A stretch of 47,882 nucleotides of DNA from a virus, in IMG/VR virus record IMGVR_UViG_3300029585_000017, one strand, 5' to 3'. The position numbers were made by a program, and so were the translations under genes. Shown piece after piece: positions 5,039 through 40,294 of the stretch. A model generated the notes under the pieces. The model saw nothing but the letters and a program-made list of their open reading frames with translations. It made no database searches and was not told the DNA's origin. The first letter of the stretch is position 1, and each line of letters starts with the position of its first letter.

Positions 5039-8000
5039 ATGTTATCTACAGGTGCGGCTAGCACATTGGCTAGTCAATCTAATGTCACTCCTCGTGACCC
5101 AGCAGCACAATCAGTGCAAGCTGGTTACACCAGCCTAATGGCTGAAGGCGTTCCTACAGGTCAAACATACTACAACGTTATACAAGAGAATGAAGAAGTA
5201 GGGTATAGCCCTACAACACAAGCTGTTAATGACATCTTGTATCAAGAAGAAGGTCAGCGTATGACTGACCTACTTCCTGACATTCTTCTAGATGAGAATC
5301 TTACTGACGAACAGAAGAGAGAGATGCTTGGCTTAACAGTTGACCGTCCTGAGAATGACCTTTCATATCAGTACGCTCGTGACAATCTTGAGTCTCCTGA
5401 ACTTCTCGAAGTAAACAAGGAATATCGAAACAGTAAAGAAGCAGCTCTTGCTTCTCTTAAAACCGTTAATGATTACAACACAGCTATAGATGCTGCTGAA
5501 GACCAAGCGAACATGTCAGATAATCCAAGTTTTGTAAACAATGCTGTGGATTTTGGTATGTTAATGGTTCCTTATTGGGAACAGACAACCATCGCTGAGT
5601 TGTCTAACCTTCTTGGTGGAGATGCTACAGACGTAGCTAAAGCTTTCGTTCTAATGGGGGAGAGTAAACAAGACCTTCGTGAAGCATTTACTAAAATGCC
5701 TCTTGAGGAGCGTGCCCAAGCAGCACAGTTTTTTGTCAATGCTATTGTAGAAGCTAACTCTAATAGCTTCATGACCAATGAACTCAGCACTCGTGGTTTG
5801 ATTGATGCAGTATTGCATGGTGATTACGCAGAGTGGGAATCTTGGTTGGATAATGTTGTTTCCCTAGCAGACCTTTCTATTGTAGGTAAGCCTATAAAGT
5901 GGGGTAGCGATTATCTACGTGGTTTGAATAAAGCCCGTAAGGTAAAGAGTGCAGTAAGATCTTCATCACCTCATCGCATGGCTAATGAGACTAATGCTTC
6001 AGAAGCTAGACGTCAAGTTGCAGAGATGATTGATGATGGTACAGGTGAGACAGCAAGCGCATTGACAGGAGCCTCGCGAGAGGACGCTATACTGGATACA
6101 GTGTTACCAGAAATGGGTGTTGGTGGAGAACTTGCAGGTATTCGTGATAAGGTAGGACGTAGCACTGCCACATATGAGAAGACTCTGATCAGCAATGCTA
6201 ATATTGACGAAGCTTTGAACGACAGTGCTATTGGGGCTCTTACAAGAAAAGAGGTCGAAGCAGCTAATGCCCGTGTTGTAAACAGATTACAAAGCGCTAA
6301 AGGTGTTACTTCTCGTAAAGAGATGTTTGATTTTAAAGAGACAGAGACGGGTGCTAAAATCAGGGGTGTATACGGACCTGAAGAAGGTGGGTGGTCTAGT
6401 GCCAAAGAAGCTAGAGAATTAACAGCTATTGCTCTACGTCCTGAAGGTATTGACTCTAGTGCTATCACTATTCTTAAGAAAGGTGACGATGGAGAGTTCC
6501 GTCCAGTAAAAGGTTTACCAGAAGAAGAAGGTCAATATCTAGCGTCTTTCGACTATGACTATGAGACTAACTTCTCTGACGTTATTGGCAATTGGGAACG
6601 TTTCGATGTTAAGCGTAACTTCTTAGACCGAGCTTCACTCTCAGCTAAAGCTAAAGTGAACCGTCATGTGTTTGATCCCGCATCTACATTAGACTCTCAC
6701 ATTGTGTTTGGAGCTAATGCAGCGGTAGATAAAGCAGCTCGTGTAACTAAACTTATGCTTGAAGACGCTAAGAATTTCTCTGACAAGCTTAATGTGATGG
6801 ATAGTCAAAAGCAACAAGACATCCTGTCATATATTAAAGAAGCTAATGAAAAGGGATGGAAGTTCAATAAAGAAATGGCTCGTGCAGAGTGGAACTTCAA
6901 CGATGACCAACTCGATGCGTTACAATCATTTCGTAATTATTGGGATGATGTGTGGGCTATTCGTAACCGTACTGATGCTAAAGCTATGGCAGATGAAGGT
7001 TACCTAGTGATGGAAGACTTTGCTACTGATACACGTTTCTTCGGCAGACCTCGTCGTTCACAGAACGTAGATACTAACAAAGCTGTGTTCGATCCTGTAA
7101 AAGGTGAGACAACTTCGATTACTCGTGAAGAGTTGAAGCTTCTTGAAGAACAAGGTGGAGGTATTATTCAACTACGTCGCCCTATGGATTACGATGGGGT
7201 CGTTACTGATTATGTCTTAACAACAAAAGCTGGACAAACTCGTGGTGTTACTAAGTCTGATATTGTTTACCCGTATCGTGAAGGGTACTATGAAGTAAAT
7301 TATACACAGCCTCACTTTATTGTGAAAGAAGTTACGGATGGTACACGTACGTATCAGAAAGCAGTAGCTACAGCTGAGACATTCGAAGACGCGCAGTTAT
7401 ACATTCAACGTCTCGCTAAGACAGACCCTGATGGTGTATACACACGTCGTGGGGATATTAAAGACCGTAATGAATTGGCTGGCTTTGAACAAGACATGTA
7501 TGAGTCTTACGGACACGGTAGACAACGTGCTCGTGGCAAGCGTCTAGAGGATGCTACAGCTGTTGTTCGTAATACAGAGCAGGATAATATCAAAGGTCCT
7601 GTGGATGCAATGATTGACACATCGCGTTTGATGGGCAACAGAGTAGCTATGACGGATTACATGAATGCCACAAAGCAGCGTTTCATGGAAACTTATGCCG
7701 ATGTCCTTCCTAAGAAGAATGGGATGACTCAGTTCCCATCTCGTCTAGAAGATATTGGAGATGCTTCAAACGCAACATCGCGTCAAGTCTCAGATGCTCG
7801 TACAACTTTTGAATACATTGCATATCTAGAACATGGGTATATTAACGGTATGTCTGAAGTGAGTAAGTCTGCCCTCCGTACAGCGGCAGATGCTTTAGGC
7901 GCTCGTGGTTTTGGTAAGTTGGAGAAGCTAGCTCGTAAAGCTTCAGAAGCTTCTTTAACAGATACAGCAAAAAGTGCAGCATTCCAACTGTACATTGCTC

Positions 8001-31119: not shown

Positions 31120-31464
31120 TTACTTCTTTTTACCCTGTTCGATAGCCTGACCAGCTGCCTTAATTCTTAATTTTAGGTTGGCAGCCACGTCGGTCAGACT
31201 ATACCCCGCAACCTTGATGGATGCATAAAAGATTGGGAGCACTAAGTAAGGAACTAAGGCAACACGTCTACCGATAGACCCCCATGCTTCAAGGTCGAAT
31301 CCCGTTACGAGGGGCGACCAGCTTAGGGAATCCCAGCAGGAAAGTAAGAGCACGCTGACATGAGCACCAAGCATCACAAGAAATGTGAATAAGAAAGTGC
31401 GTAGCCAGTTGCTAACCTTAGATGGAAGTGATGGAAGAGATGGTTTCTTTATACCAGAAGTCAT
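31120..31464 (-). CDS. Multi-pass membrane protein
   Basis: 114-aa ORF with hydrophobic segments, AGGTAC RBS. Confidence 0.55.
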   Translation of the reverse strand: MTSGIKKPSLPSLPSKVSNWLRTFLFTFLVMLGAHVSVLLLSCWDSLSWSPLVTGFDLEAWGSIGRRVALVPYLVLPIFYASIKVAGYSLTDVAANLKLRIKAAGQAIEQGKKK

Positions 31465-31492
31465 AACAGTACCTCTATAATTTAATTAGTAT

Positions 31493-31801
31493 TTACGGGA
31501 CGCTCCCATTAGCTAGGGATACCCCCGCCTCCCAGATAAGTAGCTTTCTCCACTTATCGGGAATCATAAGTTGTAGTTGATTAAGAAAGATGTCGAATGA
31601 TTCATCTCCTCGCTCTAAGAGGAGTTCGAGGTGTTCATTAGTTTCGTCTTTCTTGTCAAGCATTAAGTGTGTCACAATTGCATTGCTATGGTAATAAGTT
31701 CCTACGATTAACGCAGCAACTAGGATACCTAACTTAAATCGCCATTCAGCGAAAGACTTTCTTTTCTGTTTGAACCACCCCGCTATTGCGGGTATTATCA
31801 T
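31493..31801 (-). CDS. Membrane protein
   Basis: 102-aa ORF, TM LGILVAALIVGTYY. RBS cassette AGGTACATATT-ATG is identical to that of 32626-33192. Confidence 0.55.
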   Translation of the reverse strand: MIIPAIAGWFKQKRKSFAEWRFKLGILVAALIVGTYYHSNAIVTHLMLDKKDETNEHLELLLERGDESFDIFLNQLQLMIPDKWRKLLIWEAGVSLANGSVP

Positions 31802-32625
31802 AATATGTACCTGTATTATAGATGGATTTAATACTCAACAACTGTTAGCCACTATCATGTTGTATCATAGCGTTAGACTCCCGATGCTTTTCACACACCT
31901 GTCAATACTGTGAGGGATAGTTATTTACATGAGTACACTTCGATAGTTTCTATGCATGTTATCTATCTGGGACTTATATTACTCGTGTCTAGTCCTTACA
32001 AAGACACTGCCTTGGATTTGTTGTGCTCCATAGCTTATCCTTACTAACCATCTGCATATGAGTTCAGGGAGCTGAGAAGTCTATCACATATTTATACTGT
32101 CATCGATTGTAACAGTAACTAGCTTCGTTATATTCGCAGTGAGACTATTGATGAATAGTCCATACCCGCTCCGCTTTTACGCCGACACGGAGTAGCCGGA
32201 TACTTGCTAGTAATAGAAGGGACATTGTTTGATCAACTGCTACGAGTTGCAATCGCAGAGCCCATCATGCTATCGCTGGTCACGTTTCTTCACACCAACC
32301 CATCATGGCGCTACCCAATCAAACCACCAAGTGAAGAAGTATAGCTTAGTTTAACCACATACCAAGTGGCTTTTACTAACCTCATTTCCTATAACGTACT
32401 GAGGTGTTGCTCAGAATCACTTCAAGGGATTGTTTCTACCGCTGGTATTACCATACAGCACCCTATTTAGTTTTCATCTAAGTCTTTTACTTATTACACT
32501 AGTGCGCTAATAACTTTACACTCCCGATACGAGGGACGCACTATTTACTTCCGGACATTTTTCCAATGATACCAATTCGTACCACCATACCATGAGGAGT
32601 ACATTAGATTGTAATGTCATGATGC

Positions 32626-33192
32626 TTATGCTTCATCAAACTGTGCTGCAAGCTCACACAAGGTCATCAACTGACGCATGTCAGTATCTCGTGCTCGCAA
32701 TACATTGACCAAGTCTTTCATTTCGAAGAGGGGTTCACCTTCTTCATCTTTGGCGTTGAATGCCTTATCCAGTGCATTACCTACAGTTTTCTTGTAGTCA
32801 GTAGGTTTCTTTTCTGGCTTTTTACCATTTTCTTCGAACCAATCCCAGACCGACTTATCAGAGTCATAGAACTCTTTAGCCTTAGCCTTTTTACTGTCAT
32901 GGTTCTTTTTCTTAGCGTGCTTTTTACCGAACGCTTCTTCAGTAGAGTCCCAATCCCATCCCACAAACTTAGGGAAGAATTGCATAGCGACTTTCTTATA
33001 CGCAGGTTTTAGACCAGCGATAAAGGAATTGATTGAAGACACATCATTACAGCGGTTGGTCTCTGCCCAATCGTCATAAACATACGTTAATAGATTTTTA
33101 CAGACAGTTGAGAACTCAGTGTCAGTAATCGCTGCTGCTTTGTGGAACTTGCTGATTTGCTGCGCTATCGCAGACTTAGTAAATTTAGCCAT
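32626..33192 (-). CDS. Hypothetical protein with Lys-rich central region; the only >60-aa ORF inside the coding-poor island
   Basis: 188-aa ORF, AGGTACATATT-ATG cassette, segment GKKHAKKKNHDSKKAKAKE. Confidence 0.6.
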   Translation of the reverse strand: MAKFTKSAIAQQISKFHKAAAITDTEFSTVCKNLLTYVYDDWAETNRCNDVSSINSFIAGLKPAYKKVAMQFFPKFVGWDWDSTEEAFGKKHAKKKNHDSKKAKAKEFYDSDKSVWDWFEENGKKPEKKPTDYKKTVGNALDKAFNAKDEEGEPLFEMKDLVNVLRARDTDMRQLMTLCELAAQFDEA

Positions 33193-33294
33193 AATATGTA
33201 CCTACTATAAATTGCATTGAATATTATCCTCGTAAGAGGTGGAAAGATTTGGAAAGTTGCATGGTTTGATGCGTACCACACTCACGCTTTAGTT

Positions 33295-33309
33295 TTGAGT
33301 GAGCAAGAA
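33295..33309. repeat. Left arm of a perfect 15-bp inverted repeat (TTGAGTGAGCAAGAA)
   Basis: Reverse complement of 34633-34647, verified base by base. Confidence 0.9.
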
Positions 33310-33468
33310 TAACCTATAGGCATATCCTCACTACCAGAACCAATCGAGTGTGTCCTTTCATAAGCATATCTCCTATAGGAAGTTGTGTGTTTATTGCGGT
33401 TGTTCAGCCACTCCCCACACTGAACTATTGACCTAACGACTTGGGGCGTTAGTTTCGGTCGTGTCGTC

Positions 33469-33483
33469 GGATGTAATACATCC
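33469..33483. promoter_or_regulatory. Palindrome GGATGTA-A-TACATCC containing the iteron core
   Basis: TCGGATGTA at 33467-33475 equals the iteron motif of 21541-21626, here as an inverted pair. Confidence 0.5.
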
Positions 33484-33872
33484 ACTTATCTACTGTTACC
33501 TGACTTCTTTTGATTCGCTCATAGTTACACGAATGGGACTACCTTTCTTTTGCCAAGTGGTGGAAGTTACGCCACTAGTTCGCGGTAACTGCTTTGGACA
33601 CAGCCCACTAGTCGAGCATTTGAGTTCTTTCGTGCTGCCCTCAGTTCTAGCACGTTTGGGATTTAGTTGCTACTTGCTACAGCTTGCTACACTGTAGAGG
33701 GGCTACAACATTTACACTACACGTTAACACCTCAGAAAATTTTCTCGCAATAATCCTACTATCGGCGCATCGCAAAACCTACCCCACTCAGTGGAGTTAA
33801 GCGTTACATGGTGATTTAGCTATCACTTCACGCTTATGTTTTGTCATAGTGTAGGCTTAACACTGATAGAGC

Positions 33873-33900
33873 ATATTCGTATCAGCTACATTATTGTCAA
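33873..33900 (-). promoter_or_regulatory. Weak sigma70-like promoter candidate (TTGACA-N16-GAATAT)
   Basis: Consensus -35, poor -10. Shares TGTAGCTGATA with the promoter at 34707. Confidence 0.3.
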
Positions 33901-34445
33901 ATCTTATTAAGTATCAATAACCTAATAAGCACTTGTCACACGTTTAACATTAACATTTAAGTTAATGTCTATTTGACCTATCACATTGCTTATAGACAAA
34001 ATTAATTTATATAGCGGCACACACAAGACTACTAATCTGCGTACTCTAAGGAATCCCACGGCAAACCCACGTCCATTGATAGGGAGATTCTGTCTCACGA
34101 CGTTAACCTATATCTCTGTCAGACGCACACGTTTATCTAGTGTTATCCGCTTCTGTTATCCTAATAGGGCGCGGTAGTAAAGACACACGGCGCATTATAC
34201 CTATTAAGCAAAGAGTTACTTGCACTAACTCACTAACCCAACCATAGCCTATCAATCAAAGCGGATTACGCACTAATCAAAGCTATGCTCTATAATATTA
34301 CGAGCTTTCCCTACTCAATTTCAGTATGGATAAGAGTCTATACACTTGCATCATTGACCAAGTACCTTGCCATATCTTGTATGTGTAGCCGTGGCTAACC
34401 AAGACAGCGAACAAACCACATGACCTAGCTCAATCTCTATTATCA

Positions 34446-34460
34446 CAATGTGATAGTAAA
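34446..34460 (-). promoter_or_regulatory. Operator-like 15-mer TTTACTATCACATTG, overlapping the perfect palindrome TATCACA-A-TGTGATA (34441-34455)
   Basis: Identical to 23872-23886 (-). Confidence 0.45.
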
Positions 34461-34590
34461 GCGTGACGTTAAGACAACAAATCTAACATTCACCAAGTCG
34501 CCTATCTTTCTTTTAAGTGTGGATAGATTCACACCATGTTTTCGTTATTAAGCGTTATCTCGCTTTGTCAGGGTAATCACTTCCCTATCG

Positions 34591-34618
34591 ATTATACGTG
34601 AACCTATCACAAAGTCAA
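34591..34618 (-). promoter_or_regulatory. Sigma70-type early promoter (TTGACT-N16-TATAAT)
   Basis: The - strand reads CCTTGACTTTGTGATAGGTTCACGTATAATCG, with an A/T-rich upstream element. The spacer contains TGTGATAG. Confidence 0.65.
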
Positions 34619-34632
34619 GGTTTATTTTAACT

Positions 34633-34647
34633 TTCTTGCTCACTCAA
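34633..34647. repeat. Right arm of the perfect 15-bp inverted repeat
   Basis: The + strand TTCTTGCTCACTCAA is the reverse complement of 33295-33309. Confidence 0.9.
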
Positions 34648-34706
34648 GGCGAGCTATCAAGATGCTTTCCACGTCACCTTAATTGCTTTCCTTTTAGTAT
34701 GTAGCC

Positions 34707-34735
34707 ATTCTATCAGCTACATATTGAAAGGTCAA
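34707..34735 (-). promoter_or_regulatory. Sigma70-type early promoter (TTGACC-N17-TAGAAT) with an A-rich UP-like element
   Basis: The - strand reads AAAATAATGCTTGACCTTTCAATATGTAGCTGATAGAATGG. Confidence 0.65.
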
Positions 34736-34738
34736 GCA

Positions 34739-34879
34739 TTATTTTCTACGCAACCAATTTAAACAATCTTCTTTTATATGAGGGTAATGTTCTTCTATGT
34801 GCTCCACTACCTCCTCCCATTTGGCAGCCCTTACAACGAGATGCTGATAATCTGATTTAAAATCATCAAGGGTTAACAT
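34739..34879 (-). CDS. 46-aa early protein, below the ORF-track threshold
   Basis: I translated it by hand: MLTLDDFKSDYQHLVVRAAKWEEVVEHIEEHYPHIKEDCLNWLRRK. AAGAGGTAC RBS; downstream of the promoter at 34918. Confidence 0.55.
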   Translation of the reverse strand: MLTLDDFKSDYQHLVVRAAKWEEVVEHIEEHYPHIKEDCLNWLRRK

Positions 34880-34917
34880 ATTGTACCTCTTTCACTTTCC
34901 TATTAGATAGCTCACTC

Positions 34918-34946
34918 ATTATAAGAGAGCTAGATTAAAAGGTCAA
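34918..34946 (-). promoter_or_regulatory. Near-consensus sigma70-type early promoter (TTGACC-N17-TATAAT) with an A-tract UP element
   Basis: The - strand reads AAAAATATAAAAAAAGCTTGACCTTTTAATCTAGCTCTCTTATAATGAG. Confidence 0.75.
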
Positions 34947-34961
34947 GCTTTTTTTATATTT

Positions 34962-35081
34962 TTAATTCCCTTTAGGGAAGTCACGGATTAAACAACGCAT
35001 CGCGTATAAATAAGCTATGTTATGTTTATCATCCATACAGCCAATTAATATAAAACGTTTCTCGTAGTCTGCTACACTCAT
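34962..35081 (-). CDS. 39-aa early protein, below the ORF-track threshold
   Basis: I translated it by hand: MSVADYEKRFILIGCMDDKHNIAYLYAMRCLIRDFPKGN. TAA-T-ATG junction with the upstream gene. Confidence 0.4.
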   Translation of the reverse strand: MSVADYEKRFILIGCMDDKHNIAYLYAMRCLIRDFPKGN

Positions 35082-35082
35082 A

Positions 35083-35916
35083 TTAAGCCGCCAGTTTATT
35101 GTGAATGGATGCCCACGTTTTCTTTCTAAATCCGCTAGGCTTTTCTGCCTTGCTAGGGATATTGTCCAACGTTATCCCGAACTTGTCAAGCTCTTTTTGT
35201 TCAGTCTTTGAGAGCTTAATCACATTTTCACTACCAGTATTATCACTGCTAGGCTTAGGCTCATCCACCATGCTAAAAGGCACATCATTATCGCTAGCTT
35301 CTTGCATAGCTTTTGAACTCTCTTCGTACTTTTGGTCAATGATAGCACGTGCGTCTTGAGTTTGCCAACTTTCCTCCACCGTGTTATCAATGACGTCTTC
35401 AAACTCTTCTTTAAGTGTGCCGTCGGGATTGGCGCAATTACCCCCGTACAACTTGTCATGGTCAAGGTTTGAGGGAGGCATACTCCCCCACACTTCACCC
35501 CCTATGCGCTTAATACCGTCGTCACAAATCCGGTATGTAGCCCCACTCAAAGTAAATTGGGGTTCTTTCATTGGTCGAATTTTATACGCTGCTAACTTGT
35601 GACCATCAATAACTATTTCAGTATCGATTGGCTCGAATGGTTCTACATCCTTGCCAAGTAAACAGCGATGAATATCAGAAAGGATCTTGTTCATCCATTC
35701 GTCTAGCACTCGCTTGTCACCTTTAACGCTGTTATTAATGCGCTTGTCACACATATTATAAAACTCTGACAAGTACATCAATTCACTAAACGTACTAGCA
35801 CGCCACACACGGACACCCCCTTTACGGGTACGCTGCATGTAGTTTGTCCAACTTACAGCTAATACAGGATCTGTGTCTAACTCCGGAAAAGCGAGTTTAA
35901 ACTTATCAACTTTCAT
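35083..35916 (-). CDS. Early protein of unknown function (277 aa)
   Basis: ATG at 35916 (MKVDKFKLAF) follows GGAGAT and lies just downstream of the promoter at 35950. Confidence 0.65.
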   Translation of the reverse strand: MKVDKFKLAFPELDTDPVLAVSWTNYMQRTRKGGVRVWRASTFSELMYLSEFYNMCDKRINNSVKGDKRVLDEWMNKILSDIHRCLLGKDVEPFEPIDTEIVIDGHKLAAYKIRPMKEPQFTLSGATYRICDDGIKRIGGEVWGSMPPSNLDHDKLYGGNCANPDGTLKEEFEDVIDNTVEESWQTQDARAIIDQKYEESSKAMQEASDNDVPFSMVDEPKPSSDNTGSENVIKLSKTEQKELDKFGITLDNIPSKAEKPSGFRKKTWASIHNKLAA

Positions 35917-37049: not shown

Positions 37050-37489
37050 TATGCAGCCCTCTTACTTACAATGGTAGCACTACTAGCAGCATCCGTCCAT
37101 GATACCCCTTTGTGGTTAGACTTCACCTTATAGATTAGTCCATTGGCTACCACTTCACACACTACTCTGTGCCAACCTGCACTAGACTTGAGCTTATCCA
37201 CCGCTGCCACTATAATTTGAGTCATTGACTGCTTGCCTTCTAGTTCTATCCTTAAGAACTCGCTTGGCTTAGACTGTACTTTAGCACGCTTAGTCGCACT
37301 TGTCAAGACTATTTTAACACCGCGTCTTCTGTCTTGAACAGTCGCTTTGTTCATGCGACCTAACTCACTAAGTGAGTCATTCACTAGCCCACTTGACACA
37401 TACTTAGATAGTATGTCACGTGCTACACCTTGAGATTTAACAGATGGTCTACGTTCACCATCAAAGAACACAGAGTAATTAACTTTCAT
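37049..37489 (-). CDS. Hypothetical early protein (basic)
   Basis: 146-aa ORF, AAGGT RBS; first sizeable gene of the - arm. Confidence 0.55.
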   Translation of the reverse strand: MKVNYSVFFDGERRPSVKSQGVARDILSKYVSSGLVNDSLSELGRMNKATVQDRRRGVKIVLTSATKRAKVQSKPSEFLRIELEGKQSMTQIIVAAVDKLKSSAGWHRVVCEVVANGLIYKVKSNHKGVSWTDAASSATIVSKRAA

Positions 37490-37517
37490 AAGTTTACCTT
37501 AATCAATATAAATGGTC

Positions 37518-37573
37518 GGGAAGATATGGAGAGTTGGAAGCGCCCTCAACAATGGCTGCTCTCCACTCTTCCC
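37518..37573 (-). promoter_or_regulatory. Long interrupted hairpin (7+7 bp) in the early leader
   Basis: GGGAAGA/TCTTCCC and TGGAGAG/CTCTCCA arms, 25-nt loop, small asymmetric bulge. Lies between the 35-aa ORF and the 146-aa gene. Confidence 0.55.
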
Positions 37574-37580
37574 GTTAATA

Positions 37581-37688
37581 CTAGTTAGCTAATGTATACA
37601 CCAATGCATACATGAACCACATTGGAGGCGACATTAATGCAAGTGTTGTACACGCTATGCAATACACTAACTCTTTGAATGTTTCCAT
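37581..37688 (-). CDS. 35-aa hydrophobic microprotein candidate
   Basis: I translated it by hand: METFKELVYCIACTTLALMSPPMWFMYALVYTLAN. GGAGG lies 6 nt before the ATG, but this SD abuts the -10 of the promoter at 37700, so it would be absent from that transcript. Confidence 0.35.
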   Translation of the reverse strand: METFKELVYCIACTTLALMSPPMWFMYALVYTLAN

Positions 37689-37699
37689 GCTGTGCCTCC

Positions 37700-37729
37700 A
37701 TTATAACCTAGTTTGTTTCAAGTTGTCAA
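37700..37729 (-). promoter_or_regulatory. Consensus sigma70-type promoter (TTGACA-N18-TATAAT), leftmost-firing early promoter
   Basis: The - strand reads TTGACAACTTGAAACAAACTAGGTTATAAT. Confidence 0.7.
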
Positions 37730-38135
37730 GTGTTTGTTTCTTTGTCCTAACATATCAAAGCTAACAATGACTTACATGATATGAACAGAGCTTTGCGCTA
37801 GGGTTTTAACGTCTTTATCCTTGACTTGCCGCTTGCTCTATTGACGATGTGAATCATCTCATAAGGTTCATCACTTGTCAAACACTTTGTTCTATTCTTT
37901 TCGACTTGGTAAGCATACTCTTTGCTATATAACTATCACTGCATCACTGCATAGGTAGTAAGCATTGTTTGGTAACGCTTGCCGTTTCGATGGATTAACA
38001 ATAAGCCTTTACGCATAGGATTACAAGCGCTAATTTAAACTATATACAATAGTGTGACCTACATCACATACCACTGTTTACCCTAAAGAGTAGACAGTCT
38101 GATGTACCACAACAAACAAATAAATAAAGAGGCAT

Positions 38136-38179
38136 ATGTCACGTTTTAGACGTTATGGAGGTATATATAAATATAACTA
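38136..38179 (+). promoter_or_regulatory. Phage-specific promoter-like element, copy A (TGTCAC-N19-TATATA), upstream of the tailspike operon
   Basis: ATGTCACGTTTTAGACGTTATGGAGGTATATATAAATATAACTA. It shares an identical 12-mer and an identical 20-mer with copy B. Confidence 0.6.
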
Positions 38180-38560
38180 CTAAGAACTGTAACTAATATA
38201 GTAATAAGTAATAATAAACACATACTATTAACATACTATATACATATACATAACAATGCGTTACTGGTAACACTCGCTTGCGTTCGCTTAAACCCCCTCA
38301 ATCCCTTGGTATATAAGGGCTGAGCTAATATTTAACATTGTTGTAACAAGGAAAATATGTTAATGGGGTGTAAAGCAACTGTTAACTATCTGTTACAAGA
38401 ATGTTACGAGCGTTTTGCTAGATATTGGGAAGGGGTGCATCGGGGGTACGCCCCCTTGGTATATTAATGCATTGAACCTTAAAATTTTCTCACAGAAAAT
38501 ATGAGTATACCCTTTCTTAGTGATAATTATTATTAGGCCAAATAATAGGAAAAGAAGTAA

Positions 38561-40294
38561 ATGACTACAAAAGTTAATAATAGAATGATTGATGGTGAAA
38601 CACTGAACATTCTAGATTTTGGAGCTATTGGGGATGGAGTTACAGATAATACAACTGCATTTCAAACAGCTTTTAGCAAATTGAGCGAAAACTCAACATT
38701 ATACATTCCAGATGGTATTTATAATCTAGCACCGGGTACTGTACTTAAAACTACAGGTGATGGTCAGAATATTGTCGGAAGCAGTAAGAACAAAGCCATC
38801 TTGGTATTTGGTACAATTCACTTAGCTCATTCAGTATGTAGTGTACAGAGTTTAAGAATGTATGGGACAGATACTTATGGTATTCTAGTAGATGATGATA
38901 GAACAGAAGCTGAAAGACAAGCAAGCTATTCTACACGTGCTAGAAGTTGGATTAGTGATGTAGACATTGGTAATAAGACTTATGGTATTGCGTTGACAGA
39001 TACAGGTTTCTTCACACGTATTACAGGTAGCCACCTCTCAGGAAATGAAACAGGTATTTGGCTAGCTAATGACCAAAGCGTAACTACTCCACTATTTAAC
39101 GCATCTTGGGATAGAGGTGATACTTTCATCTCAGATTGTACTATTGCGTCAAACTCCCAATATGGTATTTATGCAAAAAACCATGGTACAGCTCTTATTA
39201 GCAATAATAAGATAATTGGTAATGGTATTAACTTCTACGCTAACCCGGATAGAAGTGGTGGACGTGATGAGCGTGTTATGCAGATGTTTATGTCTAATAA
39301 CTCTCTTGAGAATGCTACTTCAGTAAGAAATGTAAACATTATCAGTGTTGCAGATAATGGAAGCGGCAGAACTCGATACACAACAGATGTTCCTCATCAA
39401 CTACCACAATCGCATGTCTATCGTGGTGATATTAGCGGGACAACTAATTATGATGGTGAAGTAAAAACTTTCTACATCTCTCCAACAGTATTTGATACAG
39501 AGCAATCTTTTGTTGCTAATGAAACAGGTACCCTGTCTCTAGGCGGTTGGGACTTATTTGTAGAACCCGGTGAATCTGGAAGCTGTGCTTACTGGAATCT
39601 TACTGGCGGTGATATTAACCAATATAATATCGAGACAGGTGCAAACTTCAATATTCATAATGTTAATGTAAAATATCAAAGACGTTATGGCTCAGGTATT
39701 GATAGTTTTTCAGATGTTGGTTTAATTAACGGTACTGATAGAACTTCTACAAATGCAGCTATTAATATCTTCCCTAGTGGTGATTTTAATGATGGAGATT
39801 TGTTTACACATCATATTCAACTAGATGGTATGCAAAGACTTTCTTCAGGACTATTCATTGCTAAAAAAGAAGTAGATGCAACTGGCGTAAATCAGAAACC
39901 AATCATTCCTGACTTAGATGGAAACGTCTTTAGTGGGAGTTACATCCCATCACAAGTAGGCTCGAACAGTAATGTAGCCAATGTCATCCATGCAACTGGA
40001 GCGTATACCCGTGTAGGTAACACAGTGAGTGTTTCAGGGTCTTTCGATATTATCCCATCTACTGCGGGAGATACTTATACAGCGTTACGCTTTAATCTTC
40101 CAGTAGCTAGTGATATTGCAGACTCCGCAACGTTAAGTGGCACAGCTGTTTGTAGTTCTGTGGCATATGCAGGAGATATTAGCGCAGCAATTCAAGGAGA
40201 TAATGGTAACAATTGTGCGTTCCTCTCTTTTAAAACGCCTACTACTGATCAGTTGAAATTCCGCTATACTCTTTCATATAGAGTTCTAAGTTAA
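38561..40294 (+). CDS. Tailspike with pectate-lyase-like right-handed beta-helix (depolymerase candidate)
   Basis: N-terminal LNILDFGAIGDGVTDNTTAFQTAF is the hallmark of the Pectate_lyase_3-type domain. Repeated NN/GI beta-helix rungs. Confidence 0.75.
   Translation: MTTKVNNRMIDGETLNILDFGAIGDGVTDNTTAFQTAFSKLSENSTLYIPDGIYNLAPGTVLKTTGDGQNIVGSSKNKAILVFGTIHLAHSVCSVQSLRMYGTDTYGILVDDDRTEAERQASYSTRARSWISDVDIGNKTYGIALTDTGFFTRITGSHLSGNETGIWLANDQSVTTPLFNASWDRGDTFISDCTIASNSQYGIYAKNHGTALISNNKIIGNGINFYANPDRSGGRDERVMQMFMSNNSLENATSVRNVNIISVADNGSGRTRYTTDVPHQLPQSHVYRGDISGTTNYDGEVKTFYISPTVFDTEQSFVANETGTLSLGGWDLFVEPGESGSCAYWNLTGGDINQYNIETGANFNIHNVNVKYQRRYGSGIDSFSDVGLINGTDRTSTNAAINIFPSGDFNDGDLFTHHIQLDGMQRLSSGLFIAKKEVDATGVNQKPIIPDLDGNVFSGSYIPSQVGSNSNVANVIHATGAYTRVGNTVSVSGSFDIIPSTAGDTYTALRFNLPVASDIADSATLSGTAVCSSVAYAGDISAAIQGDNGNNCAFLSFKTPTTDQLKFRYTLSYRVLS

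Follow-up and report, generated by a model that had tools for sequence, protein, structure and literature searches.

A conserved, structured non-coding RNA region in the early operon of Zobellviridae-type vibriophages

An ORF-free spacer between two early genes

IMG/VR virus record IMGVR_UViG_3300029585_000017, a DNA stretch of 47,882 nucleotides (nt) that was analyzed over its whole length and is referred to here as the window, represents a podophage genome of ~48 kb. Structural genes occupy its + strand, and the - strand carries an early/replication operon with genes for a DNA polymerase I-type protein, a primase-helicase and an internal virion protein. Its closest database relatives are the Zobellviridae-classified Vibrio phages of the PS32B series, 464E53-1, 468E53-1, 521E56-1, 1.264.O, VPMCC5 and an oyster-metagenome phage. 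The element under study is an 824-nt spacer free of open reading frames (ORFs) at positions 31802..32625 of the early operon, with the - strand as its RNA sense. On its 5' side lies an early gene encoding a protein of 188 amino acids (aa) (32626-33192, -), and on its 3' side a gene encoding a 102-aa transmembrane (TM) protein (31493-31801, -). An initial annotation, made from the window alone, had proposed that this spacer specifies a large structured RNA. Comparative analysis supports the proposal through compensatory covariation on the - strand in five blocks: in 17 Vibrio phages the spacer is shown to be a conserved, non-coding, strand-specific region of ~0.8 kb, predicted to fold as RNA into at least ten structural elements whose pairing is kept by compensatory mutations.

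The longest ORF in any frame of the spacer spans 47 aa, in agreement with the earlier claim that no ORF of 60 aa or more is present at 31802-32625. Each sense frame contains 17-25 stops, with all three stop codons represented; because every kind of stop codon fills each frame, recoding could not rescue a gene here, and stop-codon recoding was ruled out. No small ORF in the spacer is common to the close and distant groups of relatives. ARAGORN detected neither a tRNA nor a tmRNA in the whole window. In the GenBank records of the relatives L001-L004 (OZ196822, OX241435, OX241559 and OX241436), four or five short coding sequences for "hypothetical proteins" (31-62 aa), mostly on the opposite strand, are annotated over the spacer; without conservation between groups, they are most likely gene-caller artefacts over structured RNA.

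The set of relatives comprised 16 loci, seven from GenBank phage records and nine from public assemblies that were found through homologues of the 188-aa protein; a search of IMG/VR with that protein and its profile returned no relatives. All 16 carry an ORF-free spacer of 822-1035 nt at the same position (an uncalled TM gene was trimmed in two loci) and keep the gene order of 188-aa protein, spacer and two small TM proteins. The spacer persists in VPMCC5 and T4S1 despite a 188-aa protein only 38-40% identical to that of the window. In the alignment of relatives, the spacers consist of nearly invariant islands (GGUAGAAACAAUC, CGUCAUAGGAA, ACGUGACCA, GAUUGCAACUC, GUAUAAAUAUGUG, CCUUGUAAGGACUGG and AAUAAGUCCC) set between variable segments and length-variable hairpins. 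Judged from this alignment, conservation of the spacer exceeds the neutral level, since the islands are kept where the neighboring protein has diverged so far.

Compensatory pairing and structural elements

Covariation was tested block by block, with slid helices and 500 shuffles per block as controls; all coordinates below refer to - strand RNA. The 5' block, containing domain I, P3 and P4 (32349-32484), was described by model R1, which has 138 positions and 27 pairs with a hand-assigned structure and on which 17 sequences were realigned. R1 matches each phage exactly once, at 83-128 bits (E 1e-16 to 1e-26). In this block, 83.3% of cells are paired, a figure lowered by partial misalignment of P3 in the close group, vs 31-51% after sliding; 20 of 27 pairs are doubly changed, and the covariation score is 0.454 vs 0.05-0.11. 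For P5 (32286-32338; alignment A11), where one bulged A was removed by hand from the PS32B-type lineage (L001, L003 and L015, identical here) to hold the register, 90.4% of cells are paired vs 16-74%, 6/8 pairs are doubly changed, and covariation reaches 0.551 vs at most 0.186 in slid helices. The block formed by P6 and P7 (32230-32284; alignment A10) is 89% paired vs 20-40%, with 8/14 pairs doubly changed and a covariation of 0.458. The two pseudoknots behave similarly: PK1 (32169-32199; alignment A7) is paired in 96/96 cells (100%) vs 38-50%, with 4/10 pairs doubly changed and a covariation of 0.418, and PK2 (31970-32007; alignment A8) in 96.8% of cells vs 19-48%, with 7/11 doubly changed and a covariation of 0.315. 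Taken together, the five blocks are 83-100% paired vs 16-74% (mostly 16-51%) for slid helices, and in every block 0/500 shuffles matched the observed covariation score. The comparative alignment with covariation that the initial annotation had put forward as a check thus places pairing above both controls. Separate minimum free energy folds recovered the P1/P2/P2a layout in ~9/14 sequences, and RNAalifold recovered the structure only in part from the raw MAFFT alignment because helices are misaligned there.

The distribution of wobble pairs identifies the strand. Over all modelled helices, G.U cells outnumber A.C cells 52:25, and in PK1 and PK2 combined the ratio is 11:1; within P2a, one G.U pair occurs in 15/17 sequences and one U.G pair in 17/17. 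These counts assign the predicted structure to the - strand transcript, and the flanking genes are read in that sense too.

At the 5' end, domain I (32410..32482) opens with P1 (32477-32482 with 32410-32415; 5/6 pairs doubly changed), followed by a UGA/GAU internal loop. The 5' strand of P2 (32461-32464) pairs with CCCU inside 32425-32436 (100% paired, 3/4 doubly changed), and P2a (UGCUG/NGGUA), which contains the conserved G.U and U.G pairs, carries a variable apical hairpin at 32437-32460. A conserved bulge, GAAACAAU, completes the domain. The P3 hairpin (32379..32405) combines a stem of 5-8 bp, which differs in nearly every lineage and has 7/7 pairs doubly changed, with a conserved loop of 15-18 nt, (A)GUA(A)CGUYAUAGGAA(A). 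P4 (32353..32371) reads GCCAC-UUGGUAU-GUGGU in the window and ACGCUC...GAGCGU in distant relatives, with 5/6 pairs doubly changed.

The P5 domain (32286..32338) is composed of an 8-bp outer helix, UUCUUCAC/GUGAAGAA, around an inner hairpin that bears a GUAA tetraloop in one relative. P6 (32274..32284) is a mini-hairpin, CGU-GACCA-GCG, within the island ACGUGACCA; it is 100% paired, and its CGU/GCG stem is replaced by CAU/AUG in two relatives. The extended hairpin P7 (32230..32267; 7/11 pairs doubly changed) ends in the apical loop GAUUGCAACUC, which includes the palindrome UUGCAA; in four relatives a non-palindromic loop of the GGUGAAAG type takes its place. P3 and P7 each occur with two alternative loop types. 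A likeness of the P7 loop UGCAACUCG to a segment of 16S rRNA found no support from the Rfam small-subunit models and was treated as coincidence.

Downstream, PK1 (32169..32199) is an H-type pseudoknot present in 13/17 spacers, with S1 CCGGC/GUCGG, S2 CUCCG/CGGAG and an A-rich loop 3, (C)GUAAAAG. It resembles a preQ1-I-type riboswitch only in its H-type topology and A-rich loop 3; that identity was rejected, with no Rfam match at E <= 10 and a genomic context unrelated to the 5' UTRs of queuosine or transport genes in which that family resides. The following hairpin, GACUAUU-CAUC-AAUAGUC (32143..32160), is variable, and other relatives bear other inserts at this place. Next comes a hairpin-plus-tail module, ACUGU-(loop)-ACAGU-AUAAAUAUGUGAUAG (32081..32116), found once in the window and one to three times in relatives; copies stand in tandem, 37 nt apart, in L008 and are spaced by 87-89 nt in several other relatives. 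Among 20 copies read, five stem types occur, all of them Watson-Crick paired: ACUGU/ACAGU, ACUGGU/ACCAGU, ACUCGU/ACGAGU, ACACU/AGUGU and ACACC/GGUGU. PK2 (31970..32007), also an H-type pseudoknot, combines S1 GUGUCU/AGACAC with a loop GGACU that pairs with the downstream AGUCC of the island AAUAAGUCCC; its S2 varies across relatives as GGACU/AGUCC, GCAACU/AGUUGC and GGGCU/AGCCU. The 3' domain (31851..31921) is closed by the top-scoring helix of a column-pair scan, ACUAUC/GAUAGU, which becomes CUCAUC/GAUGAG, CCUAUU/AAUAGG, CCUACU/AGUAGG or CCUGUU/AACAGG in relatives.

The order of these elements is not fixed. In the window, in L016 and among some of the distant relatives, a block composed of PK1, the variable hairpin and UGCGAAUAUAACGAA follows P7 on its 3' side; PS32B-type phages have it 5' of domain I, and four relatives carry another module in place of the PK1 block. 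The column-pair scan found no helix linking the two ends of the spacer. The RNA therefore looks like a modular string of independently folding units, with blocks moved or swapped between phages, rather than one globular fold.

The four hairpins proposed from the window alone were all sited to within a base or two: GACTATT-CATC-AATAGTC at exactly 32143-32160, GTGTCT/AGACAC at 32002-32007 / 31985-31990, TTCTTCAC/GTGAAGAA at 32331-32338 / 32286-32293, which is P5, and ACATTA/TAATGT at 32612-32617 / 32601-32606. Covariation supports the pairings at 32286-32338 (P5) and 31985-32007 (S1 of PK2), but the hairpin at 32143-32160 is specific to the window and that at 32601-32617 is confined to close relatives. 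The 9-mer ACTCCCGAT that had been noted near both ends is present at 31877-31885 and 32520-32528, where it forms part of a 19-nt direct repeat (84% identity), but it is not conserved as a pair.

Expression signals and the upstream companion region

A pattern scan of the - strand found no sigma-70-like promoter matching at 10/12 positions or better within the spacer, the best site reaching 9/12 (32365-32338), and no terminator-like site; at this threshold, the earlier statement that the spacer lacks an internal promoter is borne out. Because it contains neither signal, the spacer is read as an internal part of an early polycistronic RNA. The nearest conserved upstream promoter is of the sigma-70 type (34591..34618, -; TTGACT-16-TATAAT, 11/12 match), and its TTGAC -35 element is aligned in 13/13 relatives compared. 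A 12/12 sigma-70 promoter lies further upstream (37729-37700), and the pattern scan showed no terminator between promoter and spacer. From these signals, we infer that host RNA polymerase reads the spacer early, from the promoter upstream of the 188-aa gene. Neither a sigma-70 nor a phage promoter was accepted for the TATAAAT motif: a -35 element is missing, the stem of the upstream hairpin covaries, and the motif, which occurs only once in the window, is not a general phage promoter.

The spacer ends in the translation initiation region of the TM gene (31799..31812, -), AGGUACAUAUU-AUG, which is identical to that of the 188-aa gene (33190-33203). The 14-nt cassette AGGTACATATTATG described in the initial annotation as shared by both genes was recovered exactly at these positions. 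The initiation motif AAGGUACAU is kept in all relatives, and AGGTAC-N5-ATG occurs three times in the window vs 0.3 expected. At the 3' ends of the spacers of two distant relatives, L006 (~5460-5560) and L012 (~5100-5200), an extra ORF for a hydrophobic peptide of 27-31 codons, with its own AAGG-type ribosome-binding site, immediately precedes the TM gene.

The product of the 188-aa gene is lysine-rich and is modelled as mostly helical (predicted local distance difference test score, pLDDT, 87); its relatives are uncharacterized proteins of other podophages only. Members of this family constitute the first early gene in many Zobellviridae-type podophages, including Salinivibrio phage CW02, Citrobacter phage CVT22, Klebsiella phages Klyazma and Asterion, and Vibrio phages 1.253.O and IME234. 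In six such phages examined (L034-L039), 0.5-1.8 kb without annotated genes precedes the family gene, and in CVT22 the initiation motif AAGGTACAT is retained before the homologous gene.

The 188-aa gene is preceded by a second, larger ORF-poor region (33193-34700, -), of which ~1.5 kb shows conservation in 13 phages, with a column identity of 0.45-0.89. The corresponding gaps in relatives measure 1.5-1.9 kb and are filled in GenBank by tiny opposite-strand "hypothetical proteins". The region has no Rfam match and is probably another large structured RNA or leader. A perfect 15-bp long-range helix, UUGAGUGAGCAAGAA / UUCUUGCUCACUCAA, joins 34633-34647 with 33295-33309 on the - strand RNA over a span of 1323 nt. 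Across 13 phages, 87.6% of its cells are paired vs 32-46% when slid, 6/15 pairs are doubly changed, and G.U pairs are present. This helix brackets the upstream region in the manner of an rRNA-precursor or RNase III stem, and its 5' arm lies upstream of the promoter at 34618-34591.

Within the upstream region, 33314-33374 (-) contains a 15-codon upstream ORF, MKGHTRLVLVVRICL, with its ATG at 33359-33361, a TAG stop at 33314-33316 and a strong AGGAGA Shine-Dalgarno sequence before the ATG. It has 15 codons in the window and in all ten alignable relatives, with varying sequence; L005 and L010 have no AUG there. Its stop codon is part of the palindrome CCUAUAGG, and the 3' arm of the long-range helix follows after a few bases; a second copy of CCUAUAGG overlaps the Shine-Dalgarno sequence. 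Such an arrangement could constitute a leader-peptide switch.

Further observations concern the DNA around this region. The 8-mer TGTGATAG occurs five times in the window, four of them within 32081-34611; one copy lies in the promoter spacer (34604-34611) and one inside a 15-bp palindrome, TATCACAATGTGATA (34441-34455). An operator role for TGTGATAG was rejected: relatives do not keep the sites, and the palindrome shows the covariation of an RNA hairpin, with a different palindrome present in a relative. An insert specific to the window (34720-35082, -) is absent from most relatives. It contributes two extra sigma-70-like promoters (34946-34918 and 34735-34707) that form a 39-nt direct repeat of 72% identity, together with an ORF of ~47 codons starting at ~34879 behind AGGTACAAT. 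A third ORF-poor stretch of ~1.07 kb (37489-38561) is situated where the - strand early operon and the + strand structural genes diverge, and the 12/12 promoter at 37729-37700 falls inside it.

Identity and possible functions of the spacer RNA

Covariance models of Rfam were applied at the gathering threshold, covering GOLLD, ROOL, OLE, HEARO, raiA and all other 4227 families. They gave zero matches in the window, and the 17 related loci yielded nothing beyond a tRNA, in CW02; when 31400-35200 was searched at E <= 10, the only match was a chance one to a long non-coding RNA family, inside the 188-aa gene. The large-RNA families suggested by the initial annotation (GOLLD, ROOL and HEARO/OLE) are thus absent from the window and its relatives, and because this covariance-model test failed, the spacer RNA is not a relative of any of them. 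On the basis of its predicted structure, it is a large ornate non-coding RNA of a previously uncatalogued family and not a member of an existing one. Full-text literature searches returned no description of non-coding RNAs in these phages.

A wider scan of viral, genome and metagenome contigs with the exact two-island pattern GGTAGAAACA-N25-50-CGTYATAGGAA matched 1 viral, 5 genome and 10 metagenome contigs. All 16 were dismissed as chance, since neither blastn nor tblastn related any of them to the spacers or to the 188-aa protein; the viral match falls within a 1111-aa ORF, and model R1 gave no credible hit among them (best L021, 18.9 bits, E = 0.12). R1 also found no match in other Zobellviridae carrying the 188-aa protein family (CW02, CVT22, 1.253.O and a remote metagenomic relative), and the gap downstream of the family gene is only 0-496 nt in CW02, CVT22, 1.253.O and three further such phages. 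In the collections searched, the RNA family appears restricted to this clade.

In size, intricacy and association with phages, GOLLD and ROOL come closest among known RNAs. With them, the spacer RNA shares a length of several hundred nt, many covarying helices, pseudoknots, conserved loops, carriage by phages and a non-coding nature. Both of those RNAs form homo-oligomers (PMC12286853). The palindromic UUGCAA loop of P7, read here from sequence and replaced in four relatives, is of a kind able to mediate loop-loop contacts. Unlike GOLLD and ROOL, the spacer RNA is located between protein genes in the early operon of a lytic podophage rather than near tRNAs, and its blocks are rearranged between relatives. 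OLE is a structured RNA of ~600 nt encoded beside a gene for a small transmembrane protein, with which it forms a membrane-associated ribonucleoprotein. The spacer RNA is likewise followed in every relative by two small proteins with TM helices and preceded by a lysine-rich protein, a likeness that is one of position only; it differs in having no Rfam match, in occurring in Vibrio phages rather than Gram-positive extremophiles, and in having neighbors without homology to known families.

Processing stems offer another comparison. Like precursor rRNAs and the RNase III sites of T7 and lambda early mRNAs, the upstream region is bracketed by a conserved helix of 9-15 bp spanning ~1.3 kb, and both ORF-free regions would lie within a polycistronic early transcript, where processing would release or stabilize segments. 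For the 824-nt spacer itself, the column-pair scan found no bracketing helix, and the enclosed sequences are not rRNA-like, as judged by the lack of an Rfam match. A group I or group II intron was rejected, with no Rfam intron match and with each flanking gene forming, in all relatives, a complete ORF of its own from start to stop codon.

The reading we tentatively prefer is that the modules act early in infection as a protein-binding RNA scaffold or decoy and, in addition, as a leader for the downstream membrane-protein cistron. Independent folding of the modules, as beads on a string, is suggested by the transposition or swapping of blocks between phages. Their conserved single-stranded loops would provide binding surfaces through which the RNA could titrate proteins during host take-over; candidate partners include host RNA-binding, RNA-decay or defence factors, the lysine-rich 188-aa protein, and the small membrane proteins encoded just downstream. 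A compact fold would also keep the 824-nt untranslated stretch resistant to Rho and RNases, and the RNA would offer the next cistron a strong initiation site, AAGGUACAU, in an open state.

Several points weigh against this scaffold or decoy reading. Dinucleotide shuffles fold as stably as the whole spacer (z = -0.06; z ~0 on both strands), and the case for structure consequently rests on comparative evidence. The alignment represents only ~9 clearly distinct lineages in two groups, so that some compensatory changes are inherited rather than independent, a problem that the controls address only in part. No expression data for any of these phages were found in the literature searched. Comparison of the 188-aa protein with Pfam, PHROG and PDB folds gave no match that would point to a binding role, and the protein occurs in other Zobellviridae without this RNA, which makes an obligate protein-RNA pair unlikely. 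Finally, the conserved position would be explained equally well by a purely cis-acting role.

Such a cis-acting role is the main rival: the spacer would serve only as a leader or intercistronic element for the TM genes, as a Rho and RNase shield, a 5' stabilizer after processing, or a means of timing or boosting translation from AAGGUACAU, with no function in trans. We consider this possible but rather doubtful. The spacer always stands directly upstream of the same TM gene, and in the window the cassette AGGUACAUAUUAUG, conserved in all relatives, is confined to the sites that follow the two structured ORF-free regions. The final 30-40 nt in front of the start codon, rich in pyrimidines and A, are unpaired, the RNA strand is rich in G and poor in C and hence a poor Rho substrate, and the lack of an internal promoter or terminator fits as well. 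However, known bacterial leaders need far less than ten or more elements with two pseudoknots and numerous conserved loops of 8-18 nt, and other Zobellviridae, whose gaps measure 0-500 nt, express the equivalent downstream genes without an RNA of this kind. Modules have also been relocated to the 5' extremity of the spacer and retained there, which argues against a geometry-dependent switch at the ribosome-binding site.

A less probable alternative, which we judge improbable overall, is an array of small RNAs or decoys cut from the early transcript, acting as pseudo-antitoxins against type III toxin-antitoxin abortive infection or as repeat mimics that sequester CRISPR-Cas. Type III antitoxins are built from tandem direct repeats of about 34-45 nt (36-45 nt in ToxIN, CptIN and TenpIN) with A-rich cut sites, placed immediately before a ToxN/AbiQ-type toxin gene, and phage-encoded decoys have precedent. 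The spacer resembles ToxI, CptI and TenpI in its small pseudoknotted units, its A-rich single-stranded segments and the ~37-nt tandem period of the hairpin-tail module in some relatives: this hairpin-plus-UAUAAAYAWGUG unit occurs one to three times, in tandem in L008 and similarly in L010 and L014, and the PK1 pseudoknot, ~31 nt long, has a UAAAAG loop that does not vary. The way in which modules are gained, lost, swapped and transposed also resembles arms-race turnover. An antitoxin array was nevertheless rejected for the window, where the hairpin-tail module and PK1 are each single-copy and the neighboring genes, without Pfam or PHROG match, include no toxin or Cas gene. Domain I, P3-P7 and the 3' domain, which form most of the spacer, are unique and non-repeated, and the segment between repeated modules is itself conserved, unlike CRISPR spacers.

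An element acting at the DNA level, whether a replication origin, an ejection or packaging signal, or a promoter/operator cluster, is highly improbable. The motif GUAUAAAUAUGUG includes a -10-like hexamer of the TATAAT type, TGTGATAG is enriched in 32081-34611, and the region belongs to the early part of the genome. Against this, the conserved G.U pairs, whose excess over A.C already speaks for RNA, would be A.C mismatches on the other strand, the pseudoknots and long-range helices covary, the TGTGATAG palindrome shows hairpin covariation, TATAAAT lacks a -35 partner, and the spacer has neither iterons nor an AT-rich tract. A decayed pseudogene or a set of unannotated tiny genes is scarcely credible: GenBank "hypothetical proteins" are annotated here in relatives, mostly on the opposite strand, and three relatives have antisense ORFs of 101-126 aa, but the close and distant groups have none of these ORFs in common (matches cover 19-24 aa and exist at the nucleotide level only), stops fill all sense frames, and the substitutions follow compensatory pairing rather than codons. 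The initial annotation had named an intact protein gene in the homologous region of relatives as a sign of such decay; none stands at this position in any relative, and because no ORF is conserved between the two groups, that objection does not apply.

Beyond the scaffold or decoy reading lies a broader and more speculative possibility, which we consider unlikely on present evidence. The spacer and the bracketed upstream region of ~1.3 kb, itself a second and larger candidate of the same sort, may together represent an undescribed class of large ornate RNAs that make up ~4-5% of a lytic vibriophage genome and are produced at the start of infection. With the adjacent lysine-rich and membrane proteins, or with factors of the host, they would assemble into a ribonucleoprotein that host take-over or the defeat of RNA-level defences would require. 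If true, this would be a phage-encoded, RNA-centred effector and not a regulatory leader.

Bacteria and phages rarely encode large non-coding RNAs with intricate folds, and the phage-linked ones that are known, GOLLD and ROOL, are still of unresolved function. The spacer RNA is similar to these in size and displays unusually clean covariation over most of its 824 nt. Public records of the relatives fill it with spurious "hypothetical proteins" of 30-60 aa, which is a problem of annotation. It is carried by cultured lytic phages of Vibrio crassostreae, V. splendidus and V. harveyi, with hosts on record, so its function is open to direct testing. Given its probable early expression and the turnover of modules between close relatives, the spacer RNA could show how phages use RNA, rather than protein, in host take-over or counter-defence.

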